From NCBI GenBank assembly GCA_963699985.1, contig CAVOVZ010000027.1, positions 16,128-80,127 of the forward strand: DNA of 64,000 bases, given 5' to 3'. Under the pieces are notes generated by a model. It had not been told where the DNA came from, ran no database searches, and saw only the letters and a program-made list of their open reading frames with translations. The position numbers and the translations under genes were made by a program. The stretch is from Terriglobia bacterium. Its GTDB lineage: Bacteria; Acidobacteriota; Polarisedimenticolia; Polarisedimenticolales; CAVOVZ01. Below are positions 4,334-63,123 of the stretch, piece by piece (the first letter of the stretch is position 1; the number at the start of each line of letters is the position of its first letter).

Positions 4334-4615
4334 CTGATGGTAGACTCTCTCGGTCGCTGAGCGCTCGGCCGTGCGGTGGGACGCGCGTTCGCTCCGTACG
4401 AAACCACCCAGGCAATGCTTGAAAACCCAGCGGCATCAGCGAGATCCGGAGGCTCGCCTGCGCTTGACACCGCCGATTCCTCGCCGTATGAAGCATCGCG
4501 TCGAGACGATCGTTCGGATCGAGATCTGGCGGCTGCCCGGTGTGCGGCGGCGCAATCGGTGAGGTGTACAGAAAGCGCGGCGGCGTGGGAGGCTCGGATG
4601 AGGCGGCTGACGTGG

Positions 4616-12790: not shown

Positions 12791-12809
12791 TCCGGGATCG
12801 AGCGCGGCT

Positions 12810-13373: not shown

Positions 13374-13374
13374 T

Positions 13375-39075: not shown

Positions 39076-39585
39076 TCCTCCGCTCCTCCTCGTCTCCCGC
39101 CGGGACCCGCTCCAGAAGCATCCGGGCGATCCGATCCCGCATGTCTTCGTCCGGGACCTCCTTCTTCACGATCCCGATGAACAGGTCGACCAGGCCGCGC
39201 CTGTCGGCCTCGGCCTGGGCGCGGATCTGCTCCTCGGTCTGACCGTCGAGCGACAAGCCGCGGGCGAGCCGCTGGCCCTTCTGCGCCCGCTCCAGGATGC
39301 CGGCACCTCCTTGAGCCCTTCGATGCCCATCGTCTTCTCGCTCTGCAGCGTCTCGAAGAGCTGCGAGACCACGACACCCCAGAGCTTGAAGTGCGAGCGT
39401 TCAGGGTCACGCGCTCGCTGGCGAGTTTCTCGACCAGCTGCTCCGCGGCCTTCCGCTCGATCTTAGACGGAGACCGTCCCAGTCCTCTTCCTTCTTCCAG
39501 GTGCCAACCGTGTGCGCCTTGTCCTCAGACGCCGGGCGATCTCGGCCACCGATGGGGCCTCGCCCGTCAGGAAGAGCGCCGGGCC
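39076..39585 (-). pseudogene. Terminase small-subunit-like HTH protein, frameshifted
   Basis: Fragments SVAEIARRL.., KAHTVGTWKKEEDWD, KIERKAAEQLVEKLASER, VVSQLFETLQSEKTMGIEGLKE, LSLDGQTEEQIRAQAEADRRGLVDLFIGIVKK in shifting frames. Confidence 0.4.
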
Positions 39586-45098: not shown

Positions 45099-46079
45099 TG
45101 TGCTTATCGGGTTGACTCCGAACCATACAACATCTTGTAGGTCGTCGGGGCGCGGGCGGTGGCCAGACCGAGAAGGGTCTGGAAGGCCGCCATGGGGGTG
45201 CGGCGCCTGTTGAAGCGGAAGGTGAACTCGTCAAGGTAGACCTGCAGATGTTGCTTGCCGACGCCGTGATGAGTGCCGCGGAGCCAGGTCTGGAGGTTGC
45301 CGAAGACCCGGTGCACACGAGGCAGAATCTTCGCCGCCCGCTCCGGGTTGCCCTGGACCTTGGGGCGGTGGCGGTAACCCATGCCCTGGAGCGGTGCGTA
45401 GCCTCCCCAGCCATCGGTCAGGACGACCGCACCACGCTGGACGTTCGCCGCAACGAATCCGGTGAGCGAGGCGCCGGACACATCGGGAACCACCTGGAGA
45501 CGCACCCTGCCGGAGCCCTTCCCGCGCACCTCGACGGCGCCCACAACCAACGCTTTGCACGACGAGTTGTCGTCCTCCCTCGAGGCTAGCTTCGGGGCCG
45601 CCGATGTAGACCTCATCCACCTCAACCTTCTCCTTCAAAGCTTCGCGGTCGGGCCGTACCATCGCCCGCCGCAGCTTGTGGAGCATGGCCCAGGCCGTCT
45701 CGTAGGAGTCCAGGCCGAGCTGCCGCTGCAGCTGCAATGCCGAGAGACCCGGTGTGTGCGTGGTGACCAGGTACGCCGCCCAGAACCAGAGGGTGAGAGG
45801 CATTCGGGTTCGGTCGGAGTACGTTTCAGCCGTGACCGAGGTCTGATAGCCGCAGGCCTTGCACTGCCAGAGCCGACGCCCAGCCAACTCGAACGCCTCG
45901 GTGTTCTGGCACCGCGTGCACCGGTACCCCTCGGTCCACCGACACGCCGCGAGATAGGCCTGGCAGGCTGCCTCGTCTGCGAACCGTCGCTGGAACTCTT
46001 TCAAGGACCTGGGGAAGTCGGGCCGACCCACCGCCGTACACTACCCATGGTGGTCTTCGGAGTCAACCCGATAAGCACA
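45099..46079 (-). mobile_element. IS1595-family-like insertion sequence
   Basis: Perfect 24-bp inverted repeats TGTGCTTATCGGGTTGACTCCGAA (45099-45122 and 46056-46079). 8-bp direct repeat AGCGACGA at 45091-45098 and 46080-46087. Confidence 0.9.
45104..46031 (-). pseudogene. IS1595-type transposase with one frameshift (~45600)
   Basis: N-terminal zinc finger (CTRCQNT..CKACGY), then ..VEVDEVYIGG, then in a second frame ALVVGAVEVRGKGSGRVRLQVVPDVSGASL..VVLTDGWGGY..HLQVYLDEFTFRFNRR. Confidence 0.8.
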
Positions 46080-46406
46080 AGCGACGAATCGCTGAAAACG
46101 CAGGGTCACTGCGGACCTCCAATTCCCCCCCCCCCAAGAACCCGGAACGGCTCGGGGTTACTCGCTGAAGGAGAATTCTCCATCATCGACTTGGATGGTC
46201 AAGACGCGCGCCGCCTGTCTTCATCGATCGCCGACACTCGGGGAGTCGGCTGAACTCGCTGCGCTTCTCGCTCGCGCCTTCTTGCGGTTAACGCAGAAAC
46301 CGCGCAACTCCGCCGTTTTCCAGGCCAGGGAGCCGCAGATTCCCCTTGATGTTCTGGCCCCGGAGAGCCCTCATGAAGTTGGGGATCGACCCCGCCGGAG
46401 ACCCCG

Positions 46407-46897
46407 ATGGCGGACGGCGTGATTGCACAGATCCAGGCTCTCAAGATGATGAGCGTCGCTGAGCTGCAGGCTCGCTGGCGCGAGTTGTACGGCGAGGACA
46501 CCCGATCGCGGAACCGAGAGTTCCTCTGGCGGCGGCTGGCGTGGCGGGTCCAGGAACTCTCCCACGGCGGCATCTCCGATCGCGCCCGGGCCCGGATCGC
46601 CGAGCTCGCCCCGGATGGGTTCGAACGCGCTTAACGCCGCGGACCCCGGCTCCGGTGGACGTCTCCGCCCCGCCGCCCCGACCCAAGACGGTCCGCGACC
46701 TTCGCCTCCCCTCGCCCGGGACGGTCATCAGTCGGACCTGGCGCGGCCGTGAGCTACGCCTGCTGGTGATGGAAGGCGGATTCGAGCTGAACGGCACCTG
46801 CTACGCATCGTTGAGCGAGGCGGCACGAGCGGCGACGGGCGCGCACTGGAATGGGAAGTTGTTCTGGGGCGTGACGCAGCGGAAGCGGAGATCCTGA
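46407..46897 (+). pseudogene. DUF2924-like protein, one frameshift (~46630)
   Basis: VIAQIQALKMMSVAELQARWRELYGEDTRSRNREFLWRRLAWRVQEL, then in a second frame LPSPGTVISRTWRGRELRLLVMEGGFELNGTCYASLSEAARAATGAHWNGKLFWG. The stop overlaps the recombinase ATG. Confidence 0.65.
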
Positions 46898-48477
46898 TGT
46901 CGCTCGCGCGGCGGCACGGCCGAGCGTCCGCGGTAGCTACCGCGACGGCTCCCGTCCGGGCTGCCGTGTACACCAGGAAGTCTACTGAAGCCGGTCTGCA
47001 GCAGGCGTTCAACTCGCTGGCCAACCAGCGCGAGCGAGGTGAAGCATACGCCGCGAGCCAAGGCTGGTCGCTCGTGCCCACGCCATACGATGACGGTGGG
47101 TTCAGCGGCGGCACCACCGATCGCCCGGCATTGCAACGGCTCATTACCGACATCGAAGCGGGCCTCGTGGACGTGATCGTCGTCTACAAGCTGGACCGCT
47201 TGAGCCGATCCGTCTGCGACTTCGTCAACCTGAACCGGTTCCTGGAGAAGCACCGCGTCGAGATCGTGTCGGTCACGGAGCCGATCGACACCCGGACACC
47301 GATGGGCCGCGCCTTCGTCACGGTCCTGATGTCCTTCGGGCAGATGGAACGAGAACAGACCGCCGAGCGCACTCGCGACAAGGTCCACGCCGCTCGCCGA
47401 CGCGGGAAGTGGACTGGTGGCACGCCGATCCTCGGGTACGACACCGCGCCCGAGGGCGGGCGGCTGGTCGTCAACCGTGACGAGGCCGGGCAGGTGCGGG
47501 GCATCTTCGAGATGTTCGTGGAGAACCCCTCCCTGGTCTCCGTCGCCGCCGAAGTGAACCGCCGGGGATGGCGGCGGAAGTCGTGGACCACCCGGGACGG
47601 CCACCGCCGCGAAGGTGGGACCTGGGATCGCCTCAACCTTCGGACCCTGCTCACCAACCCGCTCTACACCGGTCTGCAGAAGCTCGCTGGCCAGACGTTC
47701 CCTGGCGAGCATCCTGCCATCGTCTCGAAGGCGCTGTTCCAGCGAGTCCAGCGGCTTCTCGACGGGAACCGCCGTGACCGGGGCGCGCCCGAGCGAAACC
47801 GCCACGGGGCCCTCCTGCGTGGACTGCTCCGCTGCGCCACGTGCGACTCGGCGATACTCCACACGCCCACGAAGAAGAACGGCAGGTTGTACCGCTATTA
47901 CCGATGCGGGTCTGTCCTCCGTCGTGGAGCGGAAGTCTGCGCGTCGCGGCCGCTCCCCGCGGAGAGGGTCGAGGGGTTCGTCGTCGACCAGATCCGGCGC
48001 ATCGGCCAGGACCCGGTGCTCCGGGCCGAGACGTTCCGGCAGGCCCTGGCGCAGATCGCAGCAGAGCGCAGGGGAGCCAAGGCGGAGGTGAAGCGCGTCA
48101 GACGCGACCTGGACGTCGCCAGGGGGGACGTGGAGCGCCTCGTCGCCACCCTCTCCCGCACGACCGGCCCGGCCGCCGAGGCAGTCCGCGCCGAGGTCGA
48201 GAAGGCCCAGGCGAACGTCACCACCCTCGACGCCCGGCTCGCCGAGGTCCGGGCCCGCGAAGCCGCCCTGGCCAGCCAGCACGTCGACGAGGCCGATGTA
48301 GCTCATGCGCTCCGGGACTTCGACGAGCTGTGGTCGGTCTTGCTCACCTCCGAGAAGGAGCGCGTCCTCGGCCTCCTGATCGCCGCCATCCGGTACGACG
48401 GCTCGACCGCGAAGCTCGACATCGACTGGCGGCTGGCTGGCTTTGGAGAGCTCGCCCAGGAGCTTGGCGGTGAGTAG
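46897..48477 (+). CDS. Large serine recombinase
   Basis: AAVYTRKSTEAGLQQAFNSLANQRE..VVYKLDRLSRSVCDFVNL..VSVTEPIDTRTPMGRAFVTVLMSFGQMEREQTAERTRD; recombinase and zinc-beta-ribbon regions; coiled-coil C-terminus. Confidence 0.9.
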   Translation: MSLARRHGRASAVATATAPVRAAVYTRKSTEAGLQQAFNSLANQRERGEAYAASQGWSLVPTPYDDGGFSGGTTDRPALQRLITDIEAGLVDVIVVYKLDRLSRSVCDFVNLNRFLEKHRVEIVSVTEPIDTRTPMGRAFVTVLMSFGQMEREQTAERTRDKVHAARRRGKWTGGTPILGYDTAPEGGRLVVNRDEAGQVRGIFEMFVENPSLVSVAAEVNRRGWRRKSWTTRDGHRREGGTWDRLNLRTLLTNPLYTGLQKLAGQTFPGEHPAIVSKALFQRVQRLLDGNRRDRGAPERNRHGALLRGLLRCATCDSAILHTPTKKNGRLYRYYRCGSVLRRGAEVCASRPLPAERVEGFVVDQIRRIGQDPVLRAETFRQALAQIAAERRGAKAEVKRVRRDLDVARGDVERLVATLSRTTGPAAEAVRAEVEKAQANVTTLDARLAEVRAREAALASQHVDEADVAHALRDFDELWSVLLTSEKERVLGLLIAAIRYDGSTAKLDIDWRLAGFGELAQELGGE

Positions 48478-48478
48478 G

Positions 48479-48853
48479 GTGGCGGCGAGTTCGTCCTACG
48501 TGGTCGACTTCCGACCCGGGCGTGCCCCGGAGTCGGAGCCCGTGGGCCGCGTCCCCCGCGTCGCCCGGCTGCTCGCCCTGGCTCACCGGATCGACGGGAT
48601 GATCCGCACCGGCGAGATAGCCGACCTCGCCACGGCCGCCCGACTGTGCGGCGTGAGCCGGGGTCGCATGAGCCAGGTGATGAACCTCTTGCTCCTGGCC
48701 CCCGCGATCCAGGAGGCGATCATCGACTTGCCGCCGGTCACGAAGGGGAGGGACCGGATCACCGAGCGGGGCCTGCGGGAGATCGTGGCGGAAACGGAGT
48801 GGGAGAGGCAGATCGCTCGTTGGGCGGCTATCCGCGCCCACGCGGAATCGTGA
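48479..48853 (+). CDS. Recombinase-associated small protein (third gene of the module)
   Basis: GTG 2 nt after the recombinase stop. ..LCGVSRGRMSQVMNLLLLAPAIQEAIIDLPPVTKGRDRITERGLREI.. (HTH-like). Confidence 0.55.
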   Translation: MAASSSYVVDFRPGRAPESEPVGRVPRVARLLALAHRIDGMIRTGEIADLATAARLCGVSRGRMSQVMNLLLLAPAIQEAIIDLPPVTKGRDRITERGLREIVAETEWERQIARWAAIRAHAES

Positions 48854-49063
48854 ACGTGCCCCCGTGCGGCCGTTCCTCCTGGTCGTCCCGCCGGCGAGAG
48901 TCCTTCTCGTTCTGGAGCTTCTTCGTATCGTGGGTCTCGCGGGCCTTCCCCTGCTGCTCCTTCTGGTGGACTGATTTGGCCCAAGGATCGGGAGTCGTCC
49001 GAGGCGTTCTCTTGTCAGTCATTCCGGTCTCCATGACGAATCGAGCGGTACTCGGAGGATATC

Positions 49064-49648
49064 ATGCCCTACCTCAGCCCCCCAACCCTCACCGCCGACG
49101 AACAGAAGCTGATCCTGCGCGCTACCATCGGCAACATTCGGGACCACGTGATCTTTTCCCTGGCCCTCGGCACCGGCCTCCGCCTCGCCGAGATCGTCGG
49201 GCTCAACGTCGGCGACGTGTTCACACCCGATGGCGCGCCCCGGGTTCGCGTCCGCATCCGCGCCGCGATCGCGAAGGGTCACCGGGCCGGGGATGTATTC
49301 CTTCCCGATCGGCTCCTGCCGAAGCTGAAGCGGTTCTGGACTCACAAGACGAAGCGCGGGGAGGGACTCCAGCCTGCCGATCCCCTCTTCGCAAACCAAT
49401 CCCGCCACCGGATTTCGAAGCGGCGGGTCCAGTTCGCCTGGAGGACGTGGCAGCAGAGGGCGGGGTTCGATCGGCTGTACCCGTTTCATTCCATTCGCCA
49501 CAGCAGTATCACGAACGTGTACCGGTCGTCCCGCGACCTCTTCCTGGCGCAGAGGTTCGCGAGGCACGTGAGCCCGTTGACGACGGTGGTGTACACGCAT
49601 CCGAGCGACGACGAGATGGCCAGGAGGGTGTGCGAACTCCCCTGCTGA
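49064..49648 (+). CDS. Short tyrosine recombinase (catalytic domain only, 194 aa)
   Basis: GGAGGA upstream. LALGTGLRLAEIVGL (Arg), HSIRHSSITNVY (HxxR), ARHVSPLTTVVYTHP (His..Tyr). Confidence 0.85.
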   Translation: MPYLSPPTLTADEQKLILRATIGNIRDHVIFSLALGTGLRLAEIVGLNVGDVFTPDGAPRVRVRIRAAIAKGHRAGDVFLPDRLLPKLKRFWTHKTKRGEGLQPADPLFANQSRHRISKRRVQFAWRTWQQRAGFDRLYPFHSIRHSSITNVYRSSRDLFLAQRFARHVSPLTTVVYTHPSDDEMARRVCELPC

Positions 49649-49669
49649 GCTGAGGCCAGCAGCAGCATC

Positions 49670-50083
49670 GTGGTACTCTGCCGGTGCGGTTTCCGGTGCG
49701 AACTGTGCGGAAAACGGACTGTTACGATGAGCAGACGATGGCGAACGGTTCATGGCTATGACCGGTCACGGGCAGCTGAAGAAGCTGAAGACACCGGCGA
49801 GCTGCCTCTGACCCGCGCCACAGATTTCGTCTATCGAGAGTATGACTGCAAGCGCCGTGGCATTACCCGCCGCCAGGTCCGAGAGTTCCTCGAGGCGAAT
49901 TGCAACCGTGGCTGGCACCACGTGGCTGGCCCGAGTGTCCGAGCGGTTGGTTACTACTCCACCGACCTCACGGAAGACGAGAAGCGGATGTTGCTTGCTT
50001 CTGCGAAGAAGTCGGGTCAGTTGAAGACATCGGAACCCCGCCGCAATCTCAATACGCCGTCTGATCCGCCCCTCAACACCTGA
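49670..50083 (+). CDS. Hypothetical cassette protein A
   Basis: ORF with an alternative ATG at 49727 (MSRRWRTVHGY..). Coding-like middle (DFVYREYDCKRRGITRRQVREFLEANCNRGWHHV). No family recognised. Confidence 0.4.
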   Translation: MVLCRCGFRCELCGKRTVTMSRRWRTVHGYDRSRAAEEAEDTGELPLTRATDFVYREYDCKRRGITRRQVREFLEANCNRGWHHVAGPSVRAVGYYSTDLTEDEKRMLLASAKKSGQLKTSEPRRNLNTPSDPPLNT

Positions 50084-50112
50084 CTGGCAAGGCGTCCTGG
50101 TGGACGGAGGCG

Positions 50113-50390
50113 TTCCAGCCGGGAGATGCACTCTTCTGTAACTACTCCCGCCGCTGGATCTCGAAGAGGCGGATCCAGTTCGCGTGGCGTACTTGGCGGA
50201 TAAAGGCCAAGTTCGATCGGTTGTACCCCTTCGATGCGATAAGACACAGCGCCGTGACTTCTGTCTGCCGGATGTCCAAGGACTTGTTCCTGGCCCAGAG
50301 ATTCGTAGGCATTCCTCGAGGTTGGCGACGACCGTCCACACCCATCCCTCGGACCAGGAGATGGCGGGCCGGTTGAGACGGTTGCCCTGA
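50113..50390 (+). pseudogene. Tyrosine-recombinase 3' fragment, copy 2 (frameshifted)
   Basis: QPGDALFCNYSRRWISKRRIQFAWRTWRIKAKFDRLYPFDAIRHSAVTSVCRMSKDLFLAQRF, then a frame change, then LATTVHTHPSDQEMAGRLRRLP-stop. Parallels residues from QPADPLFANQSRH of 49064-49648. Confidence 0.8.
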
Positions 50391-50558
50391 AACCGATGGA
50401 TGGGGTTGGTAGCTCGGCGTTCGCAGCGACGTCTCGCGTTCCACCTGACCCGAACGATGCGGACTGCAAGTCTGGCGCTATCATTCACGACGCGCGGAGG
50501 CGCGCGGAGGCAGACTGTGATCTGGGACAATCAGGACTTTCAACGCTACTGGCGCGGA

Positions 50559-51494
50559 ATGTGGATGGAGCGACAAAGCAAGCATAACCGCGAAGCCCAG
50601 GGGCGCCTCGACAAGCTTCTCGCCGATGCCGCAAAACACGGCTACGTCTGGGGCGGCGGCCTCGCCGCAGCCGCCAGTGGATACGCAGCGGTGATTCTCA
50701 CCGGCCGCGCAAATGAAGCGATAGAAACCTTTGACGAGTCCATCATGGCGCTCAAGCTGGAGCCTGACGACGCAGACTATCGTAACCTCCTCGTCGCAAT
50801 CGAGCAGAGCATCGAGTCTACATGGCCTGCGGTGCAGACCCACATCACCGCGTCGCTGACGCGGCATGCCATGAACCCCTCGCTCGCCGACGTGACGCAA
50901 CTGAAGGATCAGAAGCTCGCGGAGATAAGGCGACTAATAGACAGAAGGCAACTGGAGGTTAGGGCGAGGAATCAAAAGGCCATTCCAGAACTTCGCGATG
51001 CAGTGTTTAACCAGATCAGCCGCCTTAACACTTCCGCCAAAGCGCGACTCGGTTTCTCGATTTTCCGACTCTCGGAAACCCGGATAGTCTCTGACCTCGG
51101 ACGAGTTCCGGTTGGTTCCGCGGACCTGGCAACCTGTTTCCAGGCCTTGGCGATCTTGATCGATCAGATGGACCAGGAGACCCTCATTTGCGAGATCACG
51201 AAGGCCGGACGAGAAGTGCCCAATGGCGGGCTTAACCGCGTGGGGATCGTGCTCGAGCTTCACGGGGTTTCGCACCACATCGAAGTCATTCAGAGGCTGA
51301 GAGATCTCAGGCGCTTGCGGGAAAGCTATCCTGCGCATCCAGACAGCCCCAAGATGCTCGAGGCTGAGGCGAGGATGGGGCTCAATCAGAGAGAGATGAA
51401 TCCCGCTCTGGCCTGGCACGCGGCGCTTCGATATCTCATCTCCGCTCTAGCTGACCTCGACAGCGCGCTGAACGTTTTGCCCCGGAAGCAATGA
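50559..51494 (+). CDS. Hypothetical cassette protein B (helical, lower G+C)
   Basis: ORF open from 50400; first ATG with a coding-like continuation is at 50559 (MWMERQSKHNREAQGRLDKLLADAAKHG..). No family recognised. Confidence 0.5.
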   Translation: MWMERQSKHNREAQGRLDKLLADAAKHGYVWGGGLAAAASGYAAVILTGRANEAIETFDESIMALKLEPDDADYRNLLVAIEQSIESTWPAVQTHITASLTRHAMNPSLADVTQLKDQKLAEIRRLIDRRQLEVRARNQKAIPELRDAVFNQISRLNTSAKARLGFSIFRLSETRIVSDLGRVPVGSADLATCFQALAILIDQMDQETLICEITKAGREVPNGGLNRVGIVLELHGVSHHIEVIQRLRDLRRLRESYPAHPDSPKMLEAEARMGLNQREMNPALAWHAALRYLISALADLDSALNVLPRKQ

Positions 51495-51519
51495 GGAGTC
51501 CTCGCGAATCAACGCTCAC

Positions 51520-51635
51520 CTTCGAGGCCGCGTGCAGAATGGTTCGCTCGGCATGCTTCGCCGTCGATTACGGTTATCCACACGCACCCCTCGGGCCAGG
51601 AGCTGGCGAGCCAGATTCGCGCGTTGCCTTACTGA
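51520..51635 (+). pseudogene. Tyrosine-recombinase 3' fragment, copy 3 (short)
   Basis: EWFARHASPSITVIHTHPSGQELASQIRALPY-stop vs QRFARHVSPLTTVVYTHPSDDEMARRVCELPC-stop. Confidence 0.7.
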
Positions 51636-52147
51636 GACACCGCGTGGCGTCTCGGTGTAGTCGTTCTCGTTGAGACGGCCTCGGGATTCGTCGAAGAGAA
51701 GCCGCCGCGCGGTCTCCACGATGGCCACACCACGACAGCGTAGAACGCGATAGTAGTTCAGCCGCGCGTGACCTGGATGGCACGCGGCGAGAGCACCGCG
51801 ACTGCGTGGAGCAACGGGTCACCAACGTCGCGCAGGAACGGGTACGGACTCAGAATAGCGCGCATGGATCGTCGCGCGCTGGCGTCTCCGCAGCGACAGG
51901 TGAGGATTGTCTCGCCGAGGAACGCCGGCACCGACATGCTGGTCGCCGCGACCTCGCAGGCTTTCTGGACGACCTGTCCGGAACCGCGTAACGCCAAGAG
52001 CGACCGGTGGCGGACCCGGAAATCGCCTGGGATCCGCAAACCGTCGCCTCCCTCCACACCGGACGAAAGCCGGACGGAGGCATCGCAACGTAGCAAGTGG
52101 ACTTGACGGGTCGTTCCGTATCAGAATCAGCTCAGAGGAGAACGACT

Positions 52148-52513
52148 ATGGGTCTCATAGCAGGATGGCTCTTCCGAAGGGCCTACTACAGCCGGCTGGG
52201 TTCACCACACTGCCCCAAGTGCATCGTATTCGGTGGACGAGAGACTCGGATGAAGCGCGACGGCGGAGGCTTCTTCAAATGTGAAGTCTGCGGCTATGAG
52301 GAGTGGCCGACCCCAAGGATAAGGAGTTCGGAGACCGCATTCGTGCTGAGTACTTTGCCAAGAAGGAAGAGGCACCATGAAGGATCTACTCACGCAGCGC
52401 CTCGGTCTGGGCCTAGAGCTGCTCGGGGAAGTCGATATGCCGCCACACCAGCCGGAGGCCGAAGCCGCTACCTCAGCGAATCCTTCCAAGTTGGTCCGCC
52501 TGTCCGCCAATGA
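52148..52513 (+). CDS. Small zinc-ribbon protein (3' end uncertain)
   Basis: GGAGGAG upstream. MGLIAGWLFRRAYYSRLGSPHCPKCIVFGG..FFKCEVCGYEEW. After ~52310 a different frame looks more coding-like (KDKEFGDRIRAEYFAKKEEAP-stop, overlapping the next ATG). Confidence 0.4.
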   Translation: MGLIAGWLFRRAYYSRLGSPHCPKCIVFGGRETRMKRDGGGFFKCEVCGYEEWPTPRIRSSETAFVLSTLPRRKRHHEGSTHAAPRSGPRAARGSRYAATPAGGRSRYLSESFQVGPPVRQ

Positions 52514-52949
52514 GCGCGAGCAGCCCGTCGTCACAGTGAAGTTCGGCCAGTTCGTTGAGTGGACCCATGACGTCGGGAGATACCAGCGGAACAGTGTTAA
52601 TGACGTCGATGCCACGCCCGCAGTGCTCGCGTTACGCGACCCCTCACGTGCTGACTCGAGGTCGGCTGCCGCCGGGGGCGACCCGCTGTTCCTTAATCAG
52701 TCCCGCCGGTGGATCTCGAAGCGCTGGGTCCAGTTCGCGTGGCGGAGGTGGCAGAAGGGGGCCGGGTTCGACCGGCTGTACCCCTTTCAGTGCACGAGGC
52801 ACACGGCCGTGACCTCCGTCTACCGGATGTCCAAAGACCTGTTCCTGGCGCAGCGGTTCGCCCGGCACGTCTCGCCGCTGACGACCGTCGTCTACACGCA
52901 CCCCTCGGACCAGGAGATGGCTCGGGAGATTCGCGGGCTGCCGTGCTGA
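52377..52949 (+). CDS. Chimeric ORF: novel ~100-aa N-terminus fused to tyrosine-recombinase 3' fragment, copy 4
   Basis: MKDLLTQRLGLGLELLGE..VKFGQFVEWTHDVGRYQRNS.., then DPLFLNQSRRWISKRWVQFAWRRWQKGAGFDRLYPFQCTRHTAVTSVYRMSKDLFLAQRFARHVSPLTTVVYTHPSDQEMAREIRGLPC-stop. Intact frame. Confidence 0.55.
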   Translation: MKDLLTQRLGLGLELLGEVDMPPHQPEAEAATSANPSKLVRLSANEREQPVVTVKFGQFVEWTHDVGRYQRNSVNDVDATPAVLALRDPSRADSRSAAAGGDPLFLNQSRRWISKRWVQFAWRRWQKGAGFDRLYPFQCTRHTAVTSVYRMSKDLFLAQRFARHVSPLTTVVYTHPSDQEMAREIRGLPC

Positions 52950-53070
52950 TGCTGGGATACCCACCGAACGGGTCACGTTTCTTCTTTCCCCCACCCCGGT
53001 TCCGATGTAAAAGACACAGGATGTCGTTCGGAAGCGGCATCTGCCCATGCGGCGAAGGAGATGATGAAGA

Positions 53071-53868
53071 ATGCGAATCGCACCCGCGATCGTGATCCTT
53101 GGCGTCAGCTCGAGCTTGTTGTGTTCCGCGGCATCCCCAGCGGCTCCGACCGAACCTGCTTCTCCCACCGCATGCGCGGGGTGGCGCGTGTCCGAGTTCC
53201 CCCAGGGAACGCGATACCGGACCGTTGTCCTCCACATGAAAAAGGCCGGCAAGGAAGCAAGCGTCCGATCTGTCGAGGACTTCGTGCTTGTTCCGTTCCA
53301 CCGCAAGTTCGCTGGTGGGGACGTGGCCGGCACCTATCGATTCTGGAAGCCAGGCGGCTGGATTCTGACCGACCAGGCAGCTTCGTTTCGAACGACGGCC
53401 GACCTGGCGGTCGCAGCCGAGAAGTACTTGATACAGCAGTGGGGTGACCCTCTCCTGCCGAGGCGAATGATGTCGTCGCCGACGGAAGCAATCAACGCAC
53501 AGACAGCCGGGAAGGCCGCTGGCGTTGCCGCTGGGTCCTCAGTATTCGAGATGCTCCTCGGCGGCGCGATCTTCGGTTCGCTGGCCAAGGAGTTCGTCGC
53601 GATCGCAGAAGGCGTGGACTGGGAAAGCGCCGAATGCCGTGCTCGCGCGAGGCTGCTCGTCGTTTCGAGTGCCGCCTGGCCAGAGGGTTCGCGTTTGGTC
53701 ACCGTCGCCGTTTCGGCGATCGGCGCCAGCGAGAAGGAAGTGCTCCCGGAGGATCTTGAGGCGGTGCGACAGATTCTCAGGCCGCCGCTCGTGACGCCAG
53801 CAACCGATGCTCCAGGATCGCCCCCGGACCCGGCAACCGGTCCCGATGGCTCTTCGCGACAGGAGTAA
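53071..53868 (+). CDS. Secreted/lipoprotein-like hypothetical protein
   Basis: GAAGGAG upstream. MRIAPAIVILGVSSSLLCSAAS leader. 265 aa. No family recognised. Confidence 0.6.
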   Translation: MRIAPAIVILGVSSSLLCSAASPAAPTEPASPTACAGWRVSEFPQGTRYRTVVLHMKKAGKEASVRSVEDFVLVPFHRKFAGGDVAGTYRFWKPGGWILTDQAASFRTTADLAVAAEKYLIQQWGDPLLPRRMMSSPTEAINAQTAGKAAGVAAGSSVFEMLLGGAIFGSLAKEFVAIAEGVDWESAECRARARLLVVSSAAWPEGSRLVTVAVSAIGASEKEVLPEDLEAVRQILRPPLVTPATDAPGSPPDPATGPDGSSRQE

Positions 53869-53900
53869 CGGACGAACCCGCCACGCGAACGGATCTCCCG

Positions 53901-54082
53901 GCTGTTCCCTTCCCCAACCCGACCGAATCCGTCCGGTTTCCCGCTTCTCCGTCGTCGTGTTTGGGTGTAGAACCTCCCCAGGTTTGCCACCCGAGGGGGG
54001 TAGCCATGGCCCGCCTGTTCGCAGCCTCCATCCTCATCGTCGCCGTTCTTCCCGCCCTGGCCAGCGAGCCGGGGCAGCCGCT
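53901..54082 (+). repeat. 5' leader/signal-peptide cassette, copy A
   Basis: About 185 bp collinear with 59482-59662 (ggtttcccgcttct.., gggtgtaSaac, atggcccgYctgttcgcagcc..gccgttctYcccgccctggccagcgagcYggggcagcc). Confidence 0.85.
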
Positions 54083-55423: not shown

Positions 55424-57740
55424 CAGGGCTCCTGACCTGATCTGAGATTTCCTACGATTTTGCTTGCATCGAGACGGGATGTGGCATATCATTAGTGCCA
55501 CATATGAATACCAAATCGCTTCTCCCCCGCCTGCCTCTGCTTCCTCCAGCCGCGGAGATCGTGAGCACGGACCTCGCGGTCGTCCGCGAAGACGGCAAGG
55601 TGGTCTTGTTCAACGCTGGAGGCCCGATCTACGAGTGTCGTCAGGATGACCGGGTCAGCGTGCGTCTTGGTGTGGCCATCGCGGCGGCGCTGCGGCTGGC
55701 GCCGGTCACCGCGTTGGCCGCGACATTCGGTATGGATCGCGGAACGTTGCATCGCGACCGGGCCAAGCTCGCAGCGGGCGGCATCGAAGCGCTTCAGCCG
55801 AAGAAGCGTGGACCGAAGGGACCGTTCAAGCTGGATGCCACAGCACTTCGGAGCGCGCAGCGCGCCCTCGATTCCGGCGCTTCGCAGCGCGAGAGCGGAA
55901 AGCAGGCAGGGGTGAGTCACTTCGCGATCTATCACGCGATTCAGAAGGGCCTGCTGAGTCGGCCGGAGAAGCGAGCAGCCGTTCCTGTGATTGCTGGTGC
56001 TTCGACCGACGATACGCTGATCCGGTCTGGCGTGCGGGCCGCGGAGGATCAATCGTGCGAAACCGGGGTGGCGGTCAAGCGCACCGCAGAGCGAGCGCTG
56101 GCGCGATCCGGCCTGCTCGCCGAGGCCGCACCGGTGTTCGAGGCGGCAGAAGGTGTTCCTGGCGCAGGGGTGTTGCTGGCGCTGCCGGCGCTGCTCGAGG
56201 AGGGATTGCTCGAGGTCGGAACGAAAGTGTATGAGGGATTGCGCAACGGGTTCTTCGGCCTTCGCTCGGTTTTGCTGACGTTCGCGATGATGGCCCTCTT
56301 GCGGATCAAGACACCCGAGCAACTCACCGAACACGCCCCTGGTGAGCTCGGTCGTCTGTTGGGCCTCGACCGTGCACCCGAGGTCAAGACGTTGCGTCGC
56401 AAGCTGCGCGAGATGGGCGAGCGTGGACTGGCGCGGACGTTCATGCGGCTGCTCACCGAGCGCTGGGCACGTGCGACCCCGAGAGAGCTCGCGTTGCTCT
56501 ACGTCGACGGCCATGTCCGCCCGTATCACGGGCGGACCCAGGTGCTCCCCAAGCACCACGTCCAGCAACGGGGCCGGCCGATGCCGGGGACCAAGGATTT
56601 CCACGTCAACGATCGTCGCGCCGACCCGCTGTTCTTCGTCACTGCGGAGGCGACCGAGAGTCTCCTCGCGATGCTGGACTCGACCCTGCTGCCTGAGGTG
56701 CGACGTCTGGTCGGGCCCGGTCGGCGCGTGACGATCACCTTCGATCGGGAGGGCTGGAGCCCTGAGCGGTTCGCCAAGTGGAAGGACGAGGGCTTCGACG
56801 TCCTCACCTACCGGAAGGGGCAGTCGTCGCGGTGGCAGGAGCGGTTCTTCCGCACGGTCGCGGGGACGGTGGGTGGGGAGGAGGTCGAGTACCGGCTGGC
56901 CGAACGCACCGTGACGCTGTCCAACGGTCTGCGCGTCCGCGAGATCCGGCGCCTCACGGACGACGGCCATCAGACGGCGGTCATCACGACGAGCGAGAAG
57001 CTCCCGCTACTCGCGGTCGCGCACCGGATGTTCTCGCGGTGGCGGCAGGAAAACTTCTTCCGTTACATGCGGCACGAGTTTGCGCTCGATCACCTCTGTA
57101 CCTACGAGGTCGAACCCGCCGATCCCAAGCGCGAGGTGGCTCACCCGGAACGCGCCGCGCTGACGAAGCGACTCGCCAGGGTTCGAAGCGATCTGGCGCG
57201 GCTCGAGAACAAACGCTTCGACATGCGGTCCGGAGGACGGGTCCGTGTCGGCCAGCGCAGGCTGTCCGAGAAAGAGCTGGACCAGGTGATCGCGCGGCGA
57301 GACGAGGAGATCGATCGCTTGGAGCTCCGGATCGCCGCGCTGCCGAAGCGGGTGACGATCGATTCCATTCTCGACCCGTCCGAGATCGTGCAGCTCGAGC
57401 GTGAGCGCAAGGTGCTCGTCGATGCCATCAAGCTGATCGCCTACCGCGCCGAGTCCGCGCTGGCCCGACTGATGGCACCTCTCCTTGCTCGACACGACGA
57501 GGAGACGAGGAAGTTCCTGAAAACGGTTTTCCAAGCCACGGCTGACATCATTCCGGACCGAGGTGCACGCCGTCTCACGGTGCGCTTCCACGGCTTGGCC
57601 AACCCCAGGATGACCCGCGCTCTCGGCGAGCTCTGCGCCTTGGTCAACGAACATGACGCTCTGTACCCGGGCACGAACCTCCGGCTCCATTTCGACGCGC
57701 CGGTGTCGCAGGAATGATCCCGCTCAGGTCAGGAGCCCTG
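55424..57740 (+). mobile_element. 2.3-kb insertion sequence (IS4-superfamily-like, unclassified)
   Basis: 17-bp inverted repeats CAGGGCTCCTGACCTGA (55424-55440) and TCAGGTCAGGAGCCCTG (57724-57740). 5-bp direct repeat CAATG (55419-55423 and 57741-57745). Excision in silico recreates the repeat-junction sequence seen at 58015-58047. Confidence 0.9.
55495..57717 (+). CDS. DDE transposase of the 2.3-kb IS
   Basis: 740 aa (an ATG at 55504 is also possible). N-terminal HTH regions. LLYVDGHVRPY, ITFDREGWS, FSRWRQENFFRYMRHEFALDHL (DDE/YREK-like). Confidence 0.85.
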   Translation: MPHMNTKSLLPRLPLLPPAAEIVSTDLAVVREDGKVVLFNAGGPIYECRQDDRVSVRLGVAIAAALRLAPVTALAATFGMDRGTLHRDRAKLAAGGIEALQPKKRGPKGPFKLDATALRSAQRALDSGASQRESGKQAGVSHFAIYHAIQKGLLSRPEKRAAVPVIAGASTDDTLIRSGVRAAEDQSCETGVAVKRTAERALARSGLLAEAAPVFEAAEGVPGAGVLLALPALLEEGLLEVGTKVYEGLRNGFFGLRSVLLTFAMMALLRIKTPEQLTEHAPGELGRLLGLDRAPEVKTLRRKLREMGERGLARTFMRLLTERWARATPRELALLYVDGHVRPYHGRTQVLPKHHVQQRGRPMPGTKDFHVNDRRADPLFFVTAEATESLLAMLDSTLLPEVRRLVGPGRRVTITFDREGWSPERFAKWKDEGFDVLTYRKGQSSRWQERFFRTVAGTVGGEEVEYRLAERTVTLSNGLRVREIRRLTDDGHQTAVITTSEKLPLLAVAHRMFSRWRQENFFRYMRHEFALDHLCTYEVEPADPKREVAHPERAALTKRLARVRSDLARLENKRFDMRSGGRVRVGQRRLSEKELDQVIARRDEEIDRLELRIAALPKRVTIDSILDPSEIVQLERERKVLVDAIKLIAYRAESALARLMAPLLARHDEETRKFLKTVFQATADIIPDRGARRLTVRFHGLANPRMTRALGELCALVNEHDALYPGTNLRLHFDAPVSQE

Positions 57741-58595
57741 CAATGGGGTGGGCCCTACCTTCCGGGTGAGTACCCCAACGAAGCAACGTTGGTTCTTCCC
57801 GTAACCGAGGATCCACTCGCACCCCCGGCACAGGGTCTGCTGGCTACAGGTTATGTGCTTACCGTCAGGCCCGGTCGCGACGGCGCTCCGGGTCTCAACC
57901 GACTCGAAAGAAACGAAGACCCAGTTGAGTTGGCTGTGACTGGCATCGTCCATGACGCGGAATGGAAGACTGCCCCGCTCACAGTCCGAATCGTCGACCA
58001 GAACGGTGTGCCGATTCCCGCGTCACAATGGGGTGGGCCCTACCTTCCGGGTGAGTACCCCAACGAAGCAACGTTGGTTCTTCCCGTAACCGAGGATCCA
58101 CTCGCACCCCCGGCACAGGGTCTGCTGGCTACAGGTTATGTGCTTACCGTCAGGCCCGGTCGCGACGGCGCTCCGGGTCTCAACCGACTCGAAAGAAACG
58201 AAGACCCAGTTGAGTTGGCTGTGACTGGCATCGTCCATGACGCGGAATGGAAGACTGCCCCGCTCACAGTCCGAATCGTCGACCAGAACGGTGTGCCGAT
58301 TCCCGCGTCACAATGGGGTGGGCCCTACCTTCCGGGTGAGTACCCCAACGAAGCAACGTTGGTTCTTCCCGTAACCGAGGATCCACTCGCACCGCCAGCT
58401 CAGGGGCAACTGGCAGTTGGATATGCACTCACGAGTAAGCCCGGATTGAACGGAATGTCGGGCACGAGTTACCACTTGTTTCGCGCCGAGGAACCCCAAG
58501 AACTGACTTCCGCAGGTCTTGTGAAGAATCTCGAGTGGGAGACATCGAGCGGAGAGCTTCGAGTTGTCGACGTCATTGAGCACGAGGTTCTTGGG
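57741..58595 (+). repeat. 285-bp (95-aa) tandem repeat, 3 copies
   Basis: Units start at 57741, 58026 and 58311. The first two read identical. The third diverges after ~85 bp. An older divergent unit precedes the IS. Confidence 0.9.
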
Positions 58596-58790
58596 TCGTT
58601 CTTCGAGATCGCGTCCATTCCTCTTTCGCCCTCTGGATCCTTGATTTCGCTACCCGTCAATGATCTCACTGTGTATCCGACGATGGGGGGAGTGTACGCG
58701 GGAGGTTACGGAGACTGCCGGATCCGGGTGGCGTCCGGACTCCACTCGGTGGCCCCTTCGATTTCACGTTTCGCTCCGGAAGGGTCGTGA
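57741..58790 (+). pseudogene. 3' part of the 95-aa-repeat secreted protein
   Basis: Continues WGGPYLPGEYPNEATLVLPVTEDPLAPPAQG.. in the repeat frame after removal of the IS. Confidence 0.8.
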
Positions 58791-59481: not shown

Positions 59482-59662
59482 CTGGTCCCTTTCCCCTCCT
59501 TAACCCGACTCAATCGGTCCGGTTTCCCGCTTCTTCCCCACCGCGTATGGGTGTACAACGGTCCCAGTTCCGCAATCTGAGGGGGGGCATGGCCCGTCTG
59601 TTCGCAGCCGCCGTCCTGCTCGTTGCCGTTCTCCCCGCCCTGGCCAGCGAGCTGGGGCAGCC
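59482..59662 (+). repeat. 5' leader/signal-peptide cassette, copy B
   Basis: Collinear with 53901-54082. Encodes MARLFAAAVLLVAVLPALASELGQP. Confidence 0.85.
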
Positions 59663-59770
59663 TCGGACACTCACGTTCGTGGACCGCGTCGCAGCCCAGC
59701 GAGCCTTCGAAGAGGTCTACTGGCGGAACCGGATCTGGCCCAAGGACAACCCCTCGCCACTTCGTGAGAT
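59589..59770 (+). pseudogene. Truncated N-terminal fragment of a paralog
   Basis: Signal peptide, then RTLTFVDRVAAQRAFEEVYWRNRIWPKDNP, which parallels RDLTFEDRVKAQEAIERVHYSHQIG of 18298-21156. Coding character is lost thereafter. Confidence 0.5.
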
Positions 59771-59829
59771 TTCCACTTGCTTCTGGCAGGCTCCTGACTC
59801 ACCGCGCGACAGCGCAGGGAGGTCCGGCG

Positions 59830-62800
59830 ATGTTCACCGGCAAAATCGGCTACTCGTTCCAGAATGTCACTCGTGGCCTGGTCTCGGTTCTGGCGCTCTC
59901 GTGCTTCCTGTCGACCGCGAACGCCACGGACAGGTGCGGTTCGGTCTGCAACGAGACCTGGACCCTCGGCGGGAGTCCATATGTCGCAACCTGTGACGTA
60001 ACGGTCGCGGCGGGATGCTCTCTGACGGTCGACGCCGGCGTCGAGGTGAGATTCGTCGCGGCGGCCGGGCTCGTCATCGACGGGAGTCTGAACGTGAACG
60101 GCACCGCCGCGAACGCCGTCGTCTTCCAATCGAGCGCCCCGTCCCCCACGCCCGGCAGCTGGGACGGACTGAGGCTCCAGGGATCGGGGCAGGCGACGAT
60201 CGACCATGCGGCAGTCAGCTACGCGGTCAGCGGCGTGTACGCGACGGGCAATGCGGTGATGAATCTGAGCGGGACCTCAGTGGACCACAGCAGCAGCTAC
60301 GGTATCTACGTGGATTCCCGTGCCGCGGTGACGCTGACCGGCGTGACGTCGCGGTACAACCGATTTGGTCTTATCGTGTACGGCTCCTCGCCGCCGCCCG
60401 TGGTGACGTCGACGGGCGGAACGTTCACCAACAACACTCTGTACGGGGTCTCCGTCGTCGGGCCCACGGCGACGGTGTCGGTGCGCGGCGGCGCGATCCA
60501 CTCGAACGGGGGCGGCTACGATTTCACCGCCGAGAGCTTCGCGAACGCGGGAGAGCGTGTGGTGGATGCGACCGGGAACTGGTGGGGGACGACGTCTGCG
60601 GCTGCGATTGGGCCGCGGATCCTGGACCACGGGGACCAAGCCAGTTCGCCGATTGTGGACTGGTGCGGTTACCTGGCGAGCGCCGGGGGTGTGCCGTGGC
60701 TGGACGTGCACTGTCCGGACCTGGCGGTGTGCGGAGAGACGGCGAGCTGGGACCTGACCGACAAGCCGTACTACATGACGTCGGACGTGGTGGTGTGCCC
60801 GACGGGGACGCTCGAGATCGGCCCTGGGGTGAATGTGCGAGCCGCGGCTGGGGCGAGCGCGGGCATCGTGGTGGACGGCACGCTGCACGTGAACGGTACG
60901 GCGGGGAGCCCGGTGGTCTTGACCTCGGACGCCGCGGTTCCGGCGGCTGGGAACTGGGACGGAGTGAAGGTCGAGGGATCAGGGCAGGCGACGATCGACC
61001 ACGCGACGGTGAGCTACGCGGGGAGCGGGGTGAACGCCACGGGCAGCGCGACGGTGAGCCTCGACGGGACGGCGGTGAGTTACTCGACCAGCGGCGTGTA
61101 CGCGACGGGCAACGCGGTGGTGAATCTGACCGGGACCTCAGTGGACCACAGCAGCAGCTACGGTATCTACGTGGATTCCCATGCCTCGGTGACGCTGACC
61201 GGCGTGACGTCGCGGTACAATCGGTTTGGTCTCATCGTGTACGGCTCCTCGCCGCCGCCCGTGGTTACGTCGACGGGCGGGACGTTCACCAACAACACGA
61301 CCTACGGGGTCTCCGTCGTCGGGCCCACGGCAACGGTGTCGGTGCGCGGCGGCGCGATCCACTCGAACGGGGGCGGCTACGATTTCACCGCCGAGAGCTT
61401 CGCGAACGCGGGAGAGCGTGTGGTGGATGCGACCGGGAACTGGTGGGGGACGACGTCTGCGGCTGCGATTGGGCCGCGGATCCTGGACCACGGGGACCAA
61501 GCCAGTTCGCCGATTGTGGACTGGTGCGGTTACCTGGCGAGCGCCGGGGGTGTGCCGTGGCTGGACGTGCACTGTCCGGACCTGGCGGTGTGCGGGGAGA
61601 CGGCGAGCTGGGACCTGACCGACAAGCCGTACTACATGACGTCGGACGTGGTGGTGTGCCCGACGGGGACGCTCGAGATCGGCCCTGGGGTGAATGTGCG
61701 AGCCGCGGCTGGGGCGAGCGCGGGCATCGTGGTGGACGGCACGCTGCACGTGAACGGTACGGCGGGGAGCCCGGTGGTCTTGACCTCGGACGCCGCGGTT
61801 CCGGCGGCTGGGAACTGGGACGGAGTGAAGGTCGAGGGATCAGGGCAGGCGACGATCGACCACGGGACGGTGAGCTACGCGGGGAGCGGGGTGAACGCCA
61901 CGGGCAGCGCGACGGTGAGCCTCGACGGGACGGCGACGGAGCACAACACGCACGGCGTGTACGTGGACACTCGATCGACCGTCACGATGACGGGGGTGAC
62001 GTCGAGGTACAATCAGAACGGTCTTACGGTGAAAGGCTCCTCGCCGCCGCCCGTGGTTACGTCGACGGGCGGCATGTTCACCAACAACACGATCTACGGG
62101 GTCAACATCGATGGCCAAGGGTACGGAGCCAAGGTCTGGGTCGGCGGTGCGAGCATCCACTCCAACATCGGCACCTATGATTTCTTCGTCTCCGGCTTCG
62201 CCAACCCGGCCACGTCTCTCGTCTGGGCTCCGGACTGCTGGTGGAGAACGAACGACATCGCAGCGATCCGTATCCGCATCTACGACCGAGAGGATAGTGC
62301 CTCCAGTCCCCGCGTCTGGTTCCGGCCGTTCGGTGGCGATTGCGAGCGGGCCCTCGGCGGCGACGCTGATCGAGATGGCCTCGGCGACTTCGAGGACAAC
62401 TGCCCGGCGACCCCGAACGCCGCCCAAACCGACGCCGACGGTGACGGGATGGGTGATGCGTGTGACCCCGCCGTGGCGACGCTTCCCGCGGGGGTCTGCG
62501 ACGGCATCAACGACACGTTCGAAGGCCACGTGGACTCCGACGGTGACGGGTGGGGTGACCCTTGCGATTTCCAGCCGACCCGCGCCGATTCGCATCCCGG
62601 TGCCGTGGAGCGTTGCGATGGGAGGGACAACGACGGCGACGCGGGTCTCGCCGAGGGCGAGGACGTGGACGCGGACCTGGACGAGGCGCTCGCCTGCGGG
62701 GACTGCGCCGATCTCGACGCCGCGATCTACCCCTGTGCCTGCGAATCGTGCACCAACCTGATCGACGACGATTGCGACACGCTCGTGGACCTGGCCGACT

Positions 62801-63123
62801 CCGCATGCGCGAGCTGGCCGGCTTGCATCATCATCTCCCCGGGTCCTGAGCCGGTGCTGACGATGAGACGGGGGGCGTGCGTCGGCGGCGGACCGGCGGG
62901 GCCCTACGAGGTGATCCGTGGAATCCTGGATCAGCTGCGGATCGCTGGAGTCTCGGTGGACCTTGGCACCGTGGGCTGCGTCGCCAGCAATCTAGTGTTG
63001 GATCGGACCAGCGAGACTCCGCGGCAGGAACCACGGCATGCAACGACGTTTCCTACTTTCTCGCCCGCGCCGAGGACGCCGGCGACTTCGGCCACGCAAG
63101 CGGTGGGGCGCCACGGGACGTGA
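59830..63123 (+). CDS. Secreted parallel beta-helix repeat protein with TSP3 repeats; CP module reached only after a frameshift
   Basis: MFTGKIGYSFQNVTRGLVSVLALSCFLSTANA signal. Repeated ..GxxxxxVxxNxxxGIYV.. (PbH1-like) turns. DADRDGLGDFEDNCP, DADGDGMGDACD. Near 63015 the frame changes; the +2 frame continues DSAAGTTACNDVSYFLARAEDAGDFG..NPDPPCP-stop at 63149. Confidence 0.8.
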   Translation: MFTGKIGYSFQNVTRGLVSVLALSCFLSTANATDRCGSVCNETWTLGGSPYVATCDVTVAAGCSLTVDAGVEVRFVAAAGLVIDGSLNVNGTAANAVVFQSSAPSPTPGSWDGLRLQGSGQATIDHAAVSYAVSGVYATGNAVMNLSGTSVDHSSSYGIYVDSRAAVTLTGVTSRYNRFGLIVYGSSPPPVVTSTGGTFTNNTLYGVSVVGPTATVSVRGGAIHSNGGGYDFTAESFANAGERVVDATGNWWGTTSAAAIGPRILDHGDQASSPIVDWCGYLASAGGVPWLDVHCPDLAVCGETASWDLTDKPYYMTSDVVVCPTGTLEIGPGVNVRAAAGASAGIVVDGTLHVNGTAGSPVVLTSDAAVPAAGNWDGVKVEGSGQATIDHATVSYAGSGVNATGSATVSLDGTAVSYSTSGVYATGNAVVNLTGTSVDHSSSYGIYVDSHASVTLTGVTSRYNRFGLIVYGSSPPPVVTSTGGTFTNNTTYGVSVVGPTATVSVRGGAIHSNGGGYDFTAESFANAGERVVDATGNWWGTTSAAAIGPRILDHGDQASSPIVDWCGYLASAGGVPWLDVHCPDLAVCGETASWDLTDKPYYMTSDVVVCPTGTLEIGPGVNVRAAAGASAGIVVDGTLHVNGTAGSPVVLTSDAAVPAAGNWDGVKVEGSGQATIDHGTVSYAGSGVNATGSATVSLDGTATEHNTHGVYVDTRSTVTMTGVTSRYNQNGLTVKGSSPPPVVTSTGGMFTNNTIYGVNIDGQGYGAKVWVGGASIHSNIGTYDFFVSGFANPATSLVWAPDCWWRTNDIAAIRIRIYDREDSASSPRVWFRPFGGDCERALGGDADRDGLGDFEDNCPATPNAAQTDADGDGMGDACDPAVATLPAGVCDGINDTFEGHVDSDGDGWGDPCDFQPTRADSHPGAVERCDGRDNDGDAGLAEGEDVDADLDEALACGDCADLDAAIYPCACESCTNLIDDDCDTLVDLADSACASWPACIIISPGPEPVLTMRRGACVGGGPAGPYEVIRGILDQLRIAGVSVDLGTVGCVASNLVLDRTSETPRQEPRHATTFPTFSPAPRTPATSATQAVGRHGT
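60229..61950 (+). repeat. 861-bp (287-aa) near-identical tandem duplication
   Basis: agcggcgtgtacgcgacgggcaa.. occurs at 60229 and 61090. Long stretches (60400-61020 vs 61261-61881) differ at only isolated positions. A third, diverged unit follows. Confidence 0.9.

Follow-up and report, generated by a model that had tools for sequence, protein, structure and literature searches.

Some prophages and islands insert at a gene's 3' end and bring along a substitute for it, as is the case for islands and tandem arrays at tRNA genes and for e14 and phage 21 in icd. Integrase-less CIMEs (cis-mobilizable elements) accrete with integrative and conjugative elements (ICEs) at the 3' end of fda in Streptococcus thermophilus, and archaeal integrases of the SSV1 type have attP inside the integrase gene itself. 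A homologous anchor combined with an illegitimate joint, in repeated events, was proposed for effector-immunity arrays of type VI secretion (T6SS) in Vibrio cholerae and for Rhs orphans (Kirchberger et al. 2017, PMC5361080), and Jackson et al. 2009 (PMC2935791) is cited there for C-terminal displacement arrays of polymorphic toxin loci. Here we describe an array of 3'-end copies in a 64,000-nucleotide stretch of contig CAVOVZ010000027.1 from a Terriglobia bacterium (assembly GCA_963699985.1; hereafter the window). In this stretch the gene of a tyrosine recombinase, here called int194, is followed by three copies of its own 3' end, each preceded by unrelated DNA. An earlier note on this DNA, made from the letters alone, had likened the array to an integron. 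We consider it fairly probable that the array consists of recombination scars left at a cargo hotspot by serial displacement of 3' ends. The pattern looks like a variant of C-terminal displacement and not like an integron-like gene-capture machine.

The gene int194 and the copies of its 3' end

The int194 protein was compared with family models and solved structures. It matched PF00589 over profile positions 2-170 of 172 (E 1e-22, 81.1 bits, cutoff 27.1), which bears out the description in the earlier note of a short recombinase consisting of the catalytic domain only. An N-terminal core-binding (SAM-like) domain was not found in Pfam, where neither PF02899 nor PF13495 gave a match. The closest solved relative was the archaeal XerA (5HXY), which aligned from its residue 135 and with its catalytic domain only. 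Residues R40, K71, H142, R145, H168 and Y177 of int194 aligned with the catalytic residues of XerA, and the six residues R-K-H-R-H-Y were invariant across 17 members of the int194 family. The nearest named models in NCBIfam were Xer-like, with every score far under the cutoff. The protein is not of the IntI type: it reached 50.9 bits with TIGR02249 (cutoff 265) and 27.5 bits with NF011946 (cutoff 435). In the window, int194 is the resident and currently complete gene, and its 3' third is a recombination hot zone.

The 3'-end copies were delimited with a nucleotide profile built from 51 full genes of the int194 family (nhmmer). The coordinates of the copies, the spacers and the other features are collected in Table 1. 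All three copies lie on the strand of int194 and run up to a TGA stop codon (50388-50390, 51633-51635 and 52947-52949), just as had been claimed for them. Copy 1 was split over tblastn frames 1 and 3, with residues 100-165 in one frame and 167-193 in the other, and was 71% identical to 49360-49559 at the nucleotide level. The frameshift reported earlier is therefore present. Copy 2 was 53% identical to int194 residues 162-193 (tblastn) and terminated in Leu-Pro-Tyr-TGA instead of Cys-stop. Copy 3 was 75.6% identical to int194 (tblastn), terminated in Cys-TGA and formed the C-terminal half of an open reading frame (ORF) of 190 aa at 52377-52949, with PF00589 over residues 96-179. The in-frame position of this copy agreed with the earlier note, which had described a fusion to a novel N terminus. 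For the N-terminal 100 aa no homolog was found in the protein search, and the "fusion" is therefore probably an incidental open frame. The claim that two copies begin at the same point of the protein held roughly for copies 1 and 3, with starts at residue 100 (profile position 297) and residue 105 (position 313); the remaining copy starts at position 488.

Pairwise nucleotide identity among the copies was 71-77%, and the longest identical run common to them was approximately 13 nt. The copies are thus diverged and not recent duplicates, as had been stated. The spacers had a G+C content of 0.54-0.62 compared with 0.65-0.72 upstream, and the three were mutually unrelated in sequence, so that the description of unrelated ORFs of lower G+C content also stands. 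The units, of 0.75-1.3 kb, carry no recombinase of their own. The spacer ORFs had no match in Pfam, PHROG, NCBIfam or PADLOC. No DNA homolog of spacer 1 was detected by blastn in 85 related loci (designated by L numbers below). For the ORF of spacer 2, the protein search found one homolog only, in L082, and a partial relative sits immediately upstream of int194 in L063. A sigma-70-like promoter was not found in the array, in agreement with the promoterless appearance noted before. In L082, which comes from a second assembly, the array recurred with 99.9-100% identity and with the frameshift of copy 1; it is therefore not an assembly artefact.

Table 1. Positions of the features discussed (window coordinates unless a related locus is named)
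Feature	Coordinates	Strand	Details
int194	49064-49648	+	full-length gene; 194-aa tyrosine recombinase, catalytic domain only; PF00589
Spacer (cargo) 1	49649-50105	+	orphan ORF 49670-50083 (137 aa)
3'-end copy 1	50106-50390	+	nhmmer 50106-50389, E 2e-52, profile positions 297-581; residues ~100-193; frameshifted
Spacer (cargo) 2	50391-51537	+	orphan ORF 50400 (or 50559)-51494
3'-end copy 2	51538-51635	+	nhmmer 51538-51647, E 6e-12, profile positions 488-597; ~32 codons
Spacer (cargo) 3	51636-52660	+	small zinc-ribbon-like ORF 52097-52513; called as 77 aa in L082
3'-end copy 3	52661-52949	+	nhmmer 52677-52959, E 3e-72, profile positions 313-595; residues ~105-194, in frame
p225 array, L053	5798-9166		3' end plus terminator hairpin, ~1.3 kb apart
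p225 array, L050	4281-7618		3' end plus terminator hairpin, ~1.3 kb apart
p225 array, L045	601-2720	-	3' end plus terminator hairpin, ~1.3 kb apart
DUF2924	46407-46634	+	Pfam; upstream module
Large serine recombinase	46897-48477	+	Pfam; upstream module
Small protein	48443-48853	+	PHROG 14161; upstream module
Terminase large and small subunit pseudogenes	37534-39520	-	tblastn to L034: TerL 47%, TerS 43%
IS1595-family insertion	45099-46080		transposase ORF 45231-46031, strand -

Fragments, flanks and mosaic genes in related elements

The protein search yielded 2663 homologs of int194, nearly all of exactly 194 aa, and the best 120 of the 2663 were 74-100% identical to it. The proteins among the best homologs share approximately 75-85% identity. 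The few best homologs with a source label came from metagenome-assembled genomes (MAGs) of Acidobacteriia/Terriglobia, Thermoanaerobaculia and Planctomycetota. A genome scan added MAGs of Eisenbacteria, Gemmatimonadota, Verrucomicrobiia and Nitrospirales, whose int194 homologs were 53-74% identical to the window protein and frequently numbered several per genome. Other lineages have int194 in convergent orientation with either the terminase genes or the serine-recombinase module. The gap behind int194 ranged from 31-46 nt in three relatives (L034, L037 and L038) to 4.4 kb of unrelated DNA, and the DNA 3' of the gene in relatives carried SIR2/NB-ARC, type I restriction, TIR, ThsB and SLATT genes. 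The 3' side of int194 is therefore a hypervariable cargo hotspot. Defence-type cargo was located at 8796-16216 in L083, 14635-17664 in L003 and 18480-20585 in L001. HATPase_c with DUF4325 was also among the cargo domains downstream of int194 in these three loci.

Fragments of the int194 3' end were found within 5 kb downstream in 21 of the 55 loci with a full gene, which come from several phyla, with one to four fragments in each of the 21. The window is therefore one case of a family-wide feature. Over the 55 loci, 3' fragments were placed downstream in 35 cases and upstream only in one; none lay on the opposite strand. Mirror-image 5' fragments, seven upstream versus two downstream of full genes, each kept 45-80 nt of their own upstream DNA. 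The 3' fragments, spaced at 0.1-3 kb, range from pristine to decayed: the terminal Cys-stop was present in 34 of 37 and an internal stop was absent from 25 of 37. They encode the conserved HxxR..H..Y segment. Most surviving fragments comprise the last 50-190 nt of the gene, perhaps because long direct repeats may be lost by homologous recombination.

The polarity of these fragments bears on the view that the array is an integrase graveyard, in which int194 elements had come to lie side by side and large deletions spared each 3' end and a little flank. Random deletions predict no polarity, whereas the ratio of downstream to upstream fragments was 35:1. Moreover, the DNA between the fragments contained no remains of the serine-recombinase module or of any other gene of the element, the spacings are merely 0.1-3 kb, and homologous recombination between full direct copies would produce a single hybrid gene and not fragments. 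On the other hand, the fragments derive from once-complete genes, with codon structure and terminal Cys-stop kept, and some have full-length counterparts with the same flank. The existence of 5' and internal fragments and the decay of the window element, with its terminase pseudogenes and IS1595 insertion, would also fit a graveyard. Taken together, we regard this origin as unlikely.

Comparison of fragments with full genes of other loci showed that fragments are inherited together with their downstream DNA. In L059, the fragment at 12911 and its flank matched full gene plus flank in both L067 and L024 (93-95%), and the fragment at 11517 with its flank matched the full gene and flank of L041 (94%). 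The fragment at 2489 in L020 and an adjoining unit, X, matched the full gene plus X in L017, L020 and L061. This linkage and the mosaic genes described below support the formal picture drawn in the earlier note, in which serial arrivals displace the old 3' end of the target gene.

Unit X is approximately 480 nt long and is closed by a conserved CTCGGCTC..TATTATGCGCC motif approximately 50 nt ahead of the next int194 fragment. The motif sites lie at 5390-5450 in L017, at 2080-2140 and 3050-3110 in L020, and at 5530-5590 in L061. This motif might be a promoter that reads into the fragment. Another motif, GGCGTATA, recurred approximately 50 nt past the int194 stop in L007, L008 and L014.

The combination of X plus fragment occurs twice in L020, a Gemmatimonadota contig, and near-identical fragment starts recur in L017, L020 and L061. 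Such cases would be expected from local duplication, in which unequal crossing-over or slippage copies the 3' end and its surroundings on the spot and the copies later diverge, and L020 shows that arrays can grow by unequal exchange once repeats exist. As the source of the window array, however, local duplication is very improbable. The three window spacers are unrelated to one another, and the copies are as close or closer to the genes of other genomes (75-79%) as they are to each other. The comparison suggests that each fragment groups with a different foreign lineage. Similarly, the L059 fragments were closer to the full genes of other loci than to the adjacent gene.

The full genes are themselves mosaics with an exchanged 3' third, sometimes together with the first cargo. 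Among eight int194 copies in one Eiseniibacteriota MAG, the first 127 residues were 91-99% identical. The last 63 residues were mostly 70-86% identical, and 94-100% within one 3' type. Synonymous identity was far lower between the 3' types of this MAG. At the nucleotide level, copies from the same MAG were 88-92% identical in the 5' part compared with 64-77% in the 3' part, and the relation was reversed in other pairs. L045 and L046 have a common block of 98-100% identity that extends from the last 60-90 nt (approximately) of the gene to approximately 470 nt downstream.

Discrete 3'-third types within one genome, and many fragments still in frame, might point to silent-cassette switching, with fragments kept in the manner of pilS/pilE as gene-conversion donors for the C-terminal third of the recombinase. 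Yet the types differ mostly at synonymous sites and the protein is conserved, and there is therefore no sign of diversifying selection. One third of the fragments have stops or frameshifts, and neither the intervening unrelated ORFs nor the p225 arrays described below would be explained. We rate such switching as extremely improbable. A diversity-generating retroelement was considered as well and rejected: no reverse transcriptase is present and the substitutions are of all kinds.

Polarity, linkage and mosaic genes, together with the scattered fragment starts and the p225 arrays described below, fit serial displacement of 3' ends. The DNA of a related element would pair with the resident element inside the conserved int194 gene as the homologous anchor, and the donor would be joined illegitimately slightly further on, inside or just past the 3' part of the resident gene. 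The product would be a complete hybrid gene with the donor 3' end, followed by the donor cargo, behind which the former 3' end, now truncated, would remain joined to its former downstream DNA. The array of the window would result from three events of this kind, with decay of the fragments afterwards. The enzymatic activity of int194 itself would not be required, and an anchor on the opposite side would be expected to yield 5' fragments. The enzymology would presumably be homology-facilitated illegitimate or out-of-register recombination between co-linear elements, and selection may act to accumulate or keep old cargo.

A gene that does not encode a recombinase allowed a further comparison. In Eiseniibacteriota contigs, the gene next upstream of int194, divergently oriented, encodes the lysine/alanine-rich protein p225 (225 aa, no Pfam match). 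In L053, L050 and L045, a series of copies of the p225 3' end and terminator, with varying starts, came after the full p225 gene and in the direction of that gene. Because this gene has the same kind of 3'-fragment array, a process that requires the recombinase's own gene as target is unnecessary.

Integron-like capture, the mechanism favoured by the earlier note, would have int194 recombine a site at the 3' end of its own gene with small circular cassettes, each made up of an ORF and a 3'-end copy. It is in keeping with a recombinase gene that has all catalytic residues, with arrays that are strictly co-oriented and adjoin the gene, with small units lacking an integrase and any detected sigma-70-like promoter, and with the absence of TerL fragments on the other side of the same hotspot. 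The sequence features expected of a capture site, however, were not observed. Fragment starts were scattered over profile positions 297-538 (297, 488 and 313 in the window), and no common motif was found in the 70 nt upstream of 38 fragment starts. The earlier note had staked its proposal on a shared core, and no crossover core appeared when the four 3' ends of the window were aligned; identical stretches among the copies do not exceed approximately 13 nt. The common right-hand limit of the copies amounts to no more than the stop codon, since even full genes show no conservation beyond it. The last 60 codons showed no drop in synonymous-site entropy (normalised 0.71-0.85 versus 0.33-0.83 elsewhere, 47 genes), and the coding sequence at the 3' end of int194 therefore carries no superimposed DNA site. 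Folding of the boundaries, proposed earlier as a check, gave no consensus structure on either strand (RNAalifold, 77 3'-end sequences), and no attC-like palindromes were seen in 48000-54000, where only weak scattered inverted repeats occur. In this point the earlier note had been correct, as attC-type hairpins had not been recognised there either.

The distribution of the cargo also spoke against integron-like capture. In L013, L026, L028, L032 and L033, cargo occupies the same spot but a fragment is absent, and the informative cases link fragments to the DNA downstream of them and not to that upstream. The window cassettes did not recur in other arrays: blastn against the 85 related loci and protein searches with the spacer 2 ORF and with the N terminus of ORF 52377-52949 found them in L082 only, and a 25-mer taken from the distal flank had no match in a single metagenome scan. 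Between the window and L082 there was no cassette polymorphism, as the array is identical in both assemblies. Together with the p225 arrays and the score of int194 with the integron-integrase model, far under its cutoff, these results make integron-like capture highly improbable.

Serial 3'-end displacement has to be weighed against several observations that do not favour it. Decay in the window did not rise with distance from int194, and the distal fragment was the best preserved. Among the loci compared, no donor and recipient came to light that would let the two junctions of one event be read. The int194 genes of different lineages share approximately 70-80% DNA identity, which is low for anchoring of the RecA type and would need a relaxed (phage-type) recombinase. 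Finally, in approximately nine cargo-bearing loci, the same variable region contained no 3' fragment of TerL compared with five of int194, which hints that int194 may be a preferred breakpoint; the gene could be specially prone to breakage. The absence of terminase fragments would be explained if the 3' third of int194 were a dedicated landing pad, with the recombinase nicking or recombining its own gene and so stimulating the capture of foreign DNA, defence genes among it in relatives. This would amount to a loose, core-less analogue of the integron in phage-like elements across several phyla. We consider a landing pad of this kind rather improbable.

The element that holds the array

The module of DUF2924, serine recombinase and small protein (46407-48853) directly precedes int194, and the same module was found upstream of int194 in nine related loci (L001, L003, L004, L013, L015, L058 and L083-L085). 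In L083-L085, the start of int194 overlaps the preceding ORF by 28 nt (8001-8028). This overlap suggests that DUF2924, the serine recombinase and int194 are read in that order as a single operon, and that int194 possibly assists in the serine-recombinase integration module. An attachment site of the serine recombinase inside int194, expected to place a 3' fragment at the prophage's far end, was also considered and was rejected, as no int194 fragment occurs elsewhere in the 64-kb window.

The window holds a decaying, defective phage-like element, as judged by the terminase pseudogenes and the IS1595-family insertion. TerL and TerS of the window have two in-frame stops each, whereas the small subunit of L082 has none. 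The IS1595-family insertion was 99.2% identical to L084 2105-3085, which is on another contig (sample ERZ25039459), and the DUF2924 ORF beside it is shortened to only 75 aa in the window. Comparison of the window with L082 over 39108-59648 revealed a sharp mosaic breakpoint at approximately 44056. To the right of it, identity was 99.9-100% over 15.6 kb; to the left, it was approximately 83-93% in a part that covers the terminase, ParB, methylase and DnaB region. This switch in identity is ongoing mosaicism.

Other mobile DNA was seen in and near int194 in relatives. In L052, a 3.4-kb element (10441-13836) interrupts int194 at codons R145/H146. It contains three tandem tyrosine recombinase genes of the recombinase-in-trio type and has 30-nt terminal inverted repeats made of TTATGCC sub-repeats. 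L064, from a second MAG, is truncated at the same point of int194 (10441 onward). Repeats of the TTATGCC type also flank a p225 fragment in L050 (about 5570-5625). In L085, two recombinase trios are nested in the serine recombinase gene (1028-6470).

Several ORFs of the window contain repeats. An ORF of 2804 aa (4376-12790) consists of diverged tandem repeats, with self-matches of 68-78% across 7116-12450 and a shortest offset of approximately 153 nt. Repeats of 285 nt (98% identical) lie at 57741-58414 within the ORF 57714-58790, and an 866-nt tandem duplication (97% identical) lies at 60209-61935 within an ORF of 1166 aa (59623-63123). The start region of a 297-aa ORF that follows the array (53905-54079) was 80% identical to that of the 1166-aa ORF (59491-59662). 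Genes for relatives of the 297-aa protein follow int194 in L001 and L015 and precede it in L011.

Comparison with known systems

The exactly 194-aa, catalytic-domain-only tyrosine recombinases that close serine-recombinase integration modules form a very large, uncharacterised family. If the reading as serial displacement is right, the displaced 3' ends are a readable record of successive cargo acquisitions, and fragment arrays could serve as markers to find and order such events in metagenomic phage genomes. If instead the recombinase proved to drive the process, it would represent a new gene-capture system.

Integrons resemble the int194 arrays in that a tyrosine recombinase gene adjoins small, promoterless-looking units, of which the newest is presumably nearest the gene. 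The int194 arrays differ in the lack of attC-type hairpins or a conserved core, in a recombinase that is not of the IntI type, in unit boundaries that are not fixed, and in an array that is co-directional with and downstream of the gene. Elements of the tRNA and icd type likewise duplicate the 3' end of their target, leave the old end beyond the insert and, through serial arrivals, build arrays of partial copies. They bring their own integrase and have an identical core at a fixed position, whereas int194 units have no integrase and variable junctions. CIMEs share with the int194 units the lack of an integrase and the bounding by repeated copies of a gene 3' end, but they have true attachment sites for the ICE integrase, and no such sites were detected in the int194 arrays. 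With SSV1, the likeness is that the recombinase gene itself would be the place of recombination. The SSV integrase gene, however, is split into N- and C-terminal parts at the ends of the provirus, whereas int194 stays complete and has 3' relics on one side only.

In the arrays of Rhs and CdiA orphans and of T6SS loci, a complete gene likewise heads a row of displaced 3' ends in the same orientation, and every such end has downstream DNA of its own. There, too, conservation of the 5' part goes with exchange of the 3' part, and no dedicated recombinase is needed. The differences lie in what is displaced and where. In place of variable toxin domains, the int194 copies encode a conserved catalytic segment; in place of cognate immunity genes, they are accompanied by orphan ORFs, and in relatives by defence-type genes. 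The host is a phage-like element, the anchor gene encodes a recombinase, and a second, unrelated gene, p225, behaves alike in int194 elements. C-terminal displacement, known from toxin loci, would thereby be extended to conserved genes of mobile elements.

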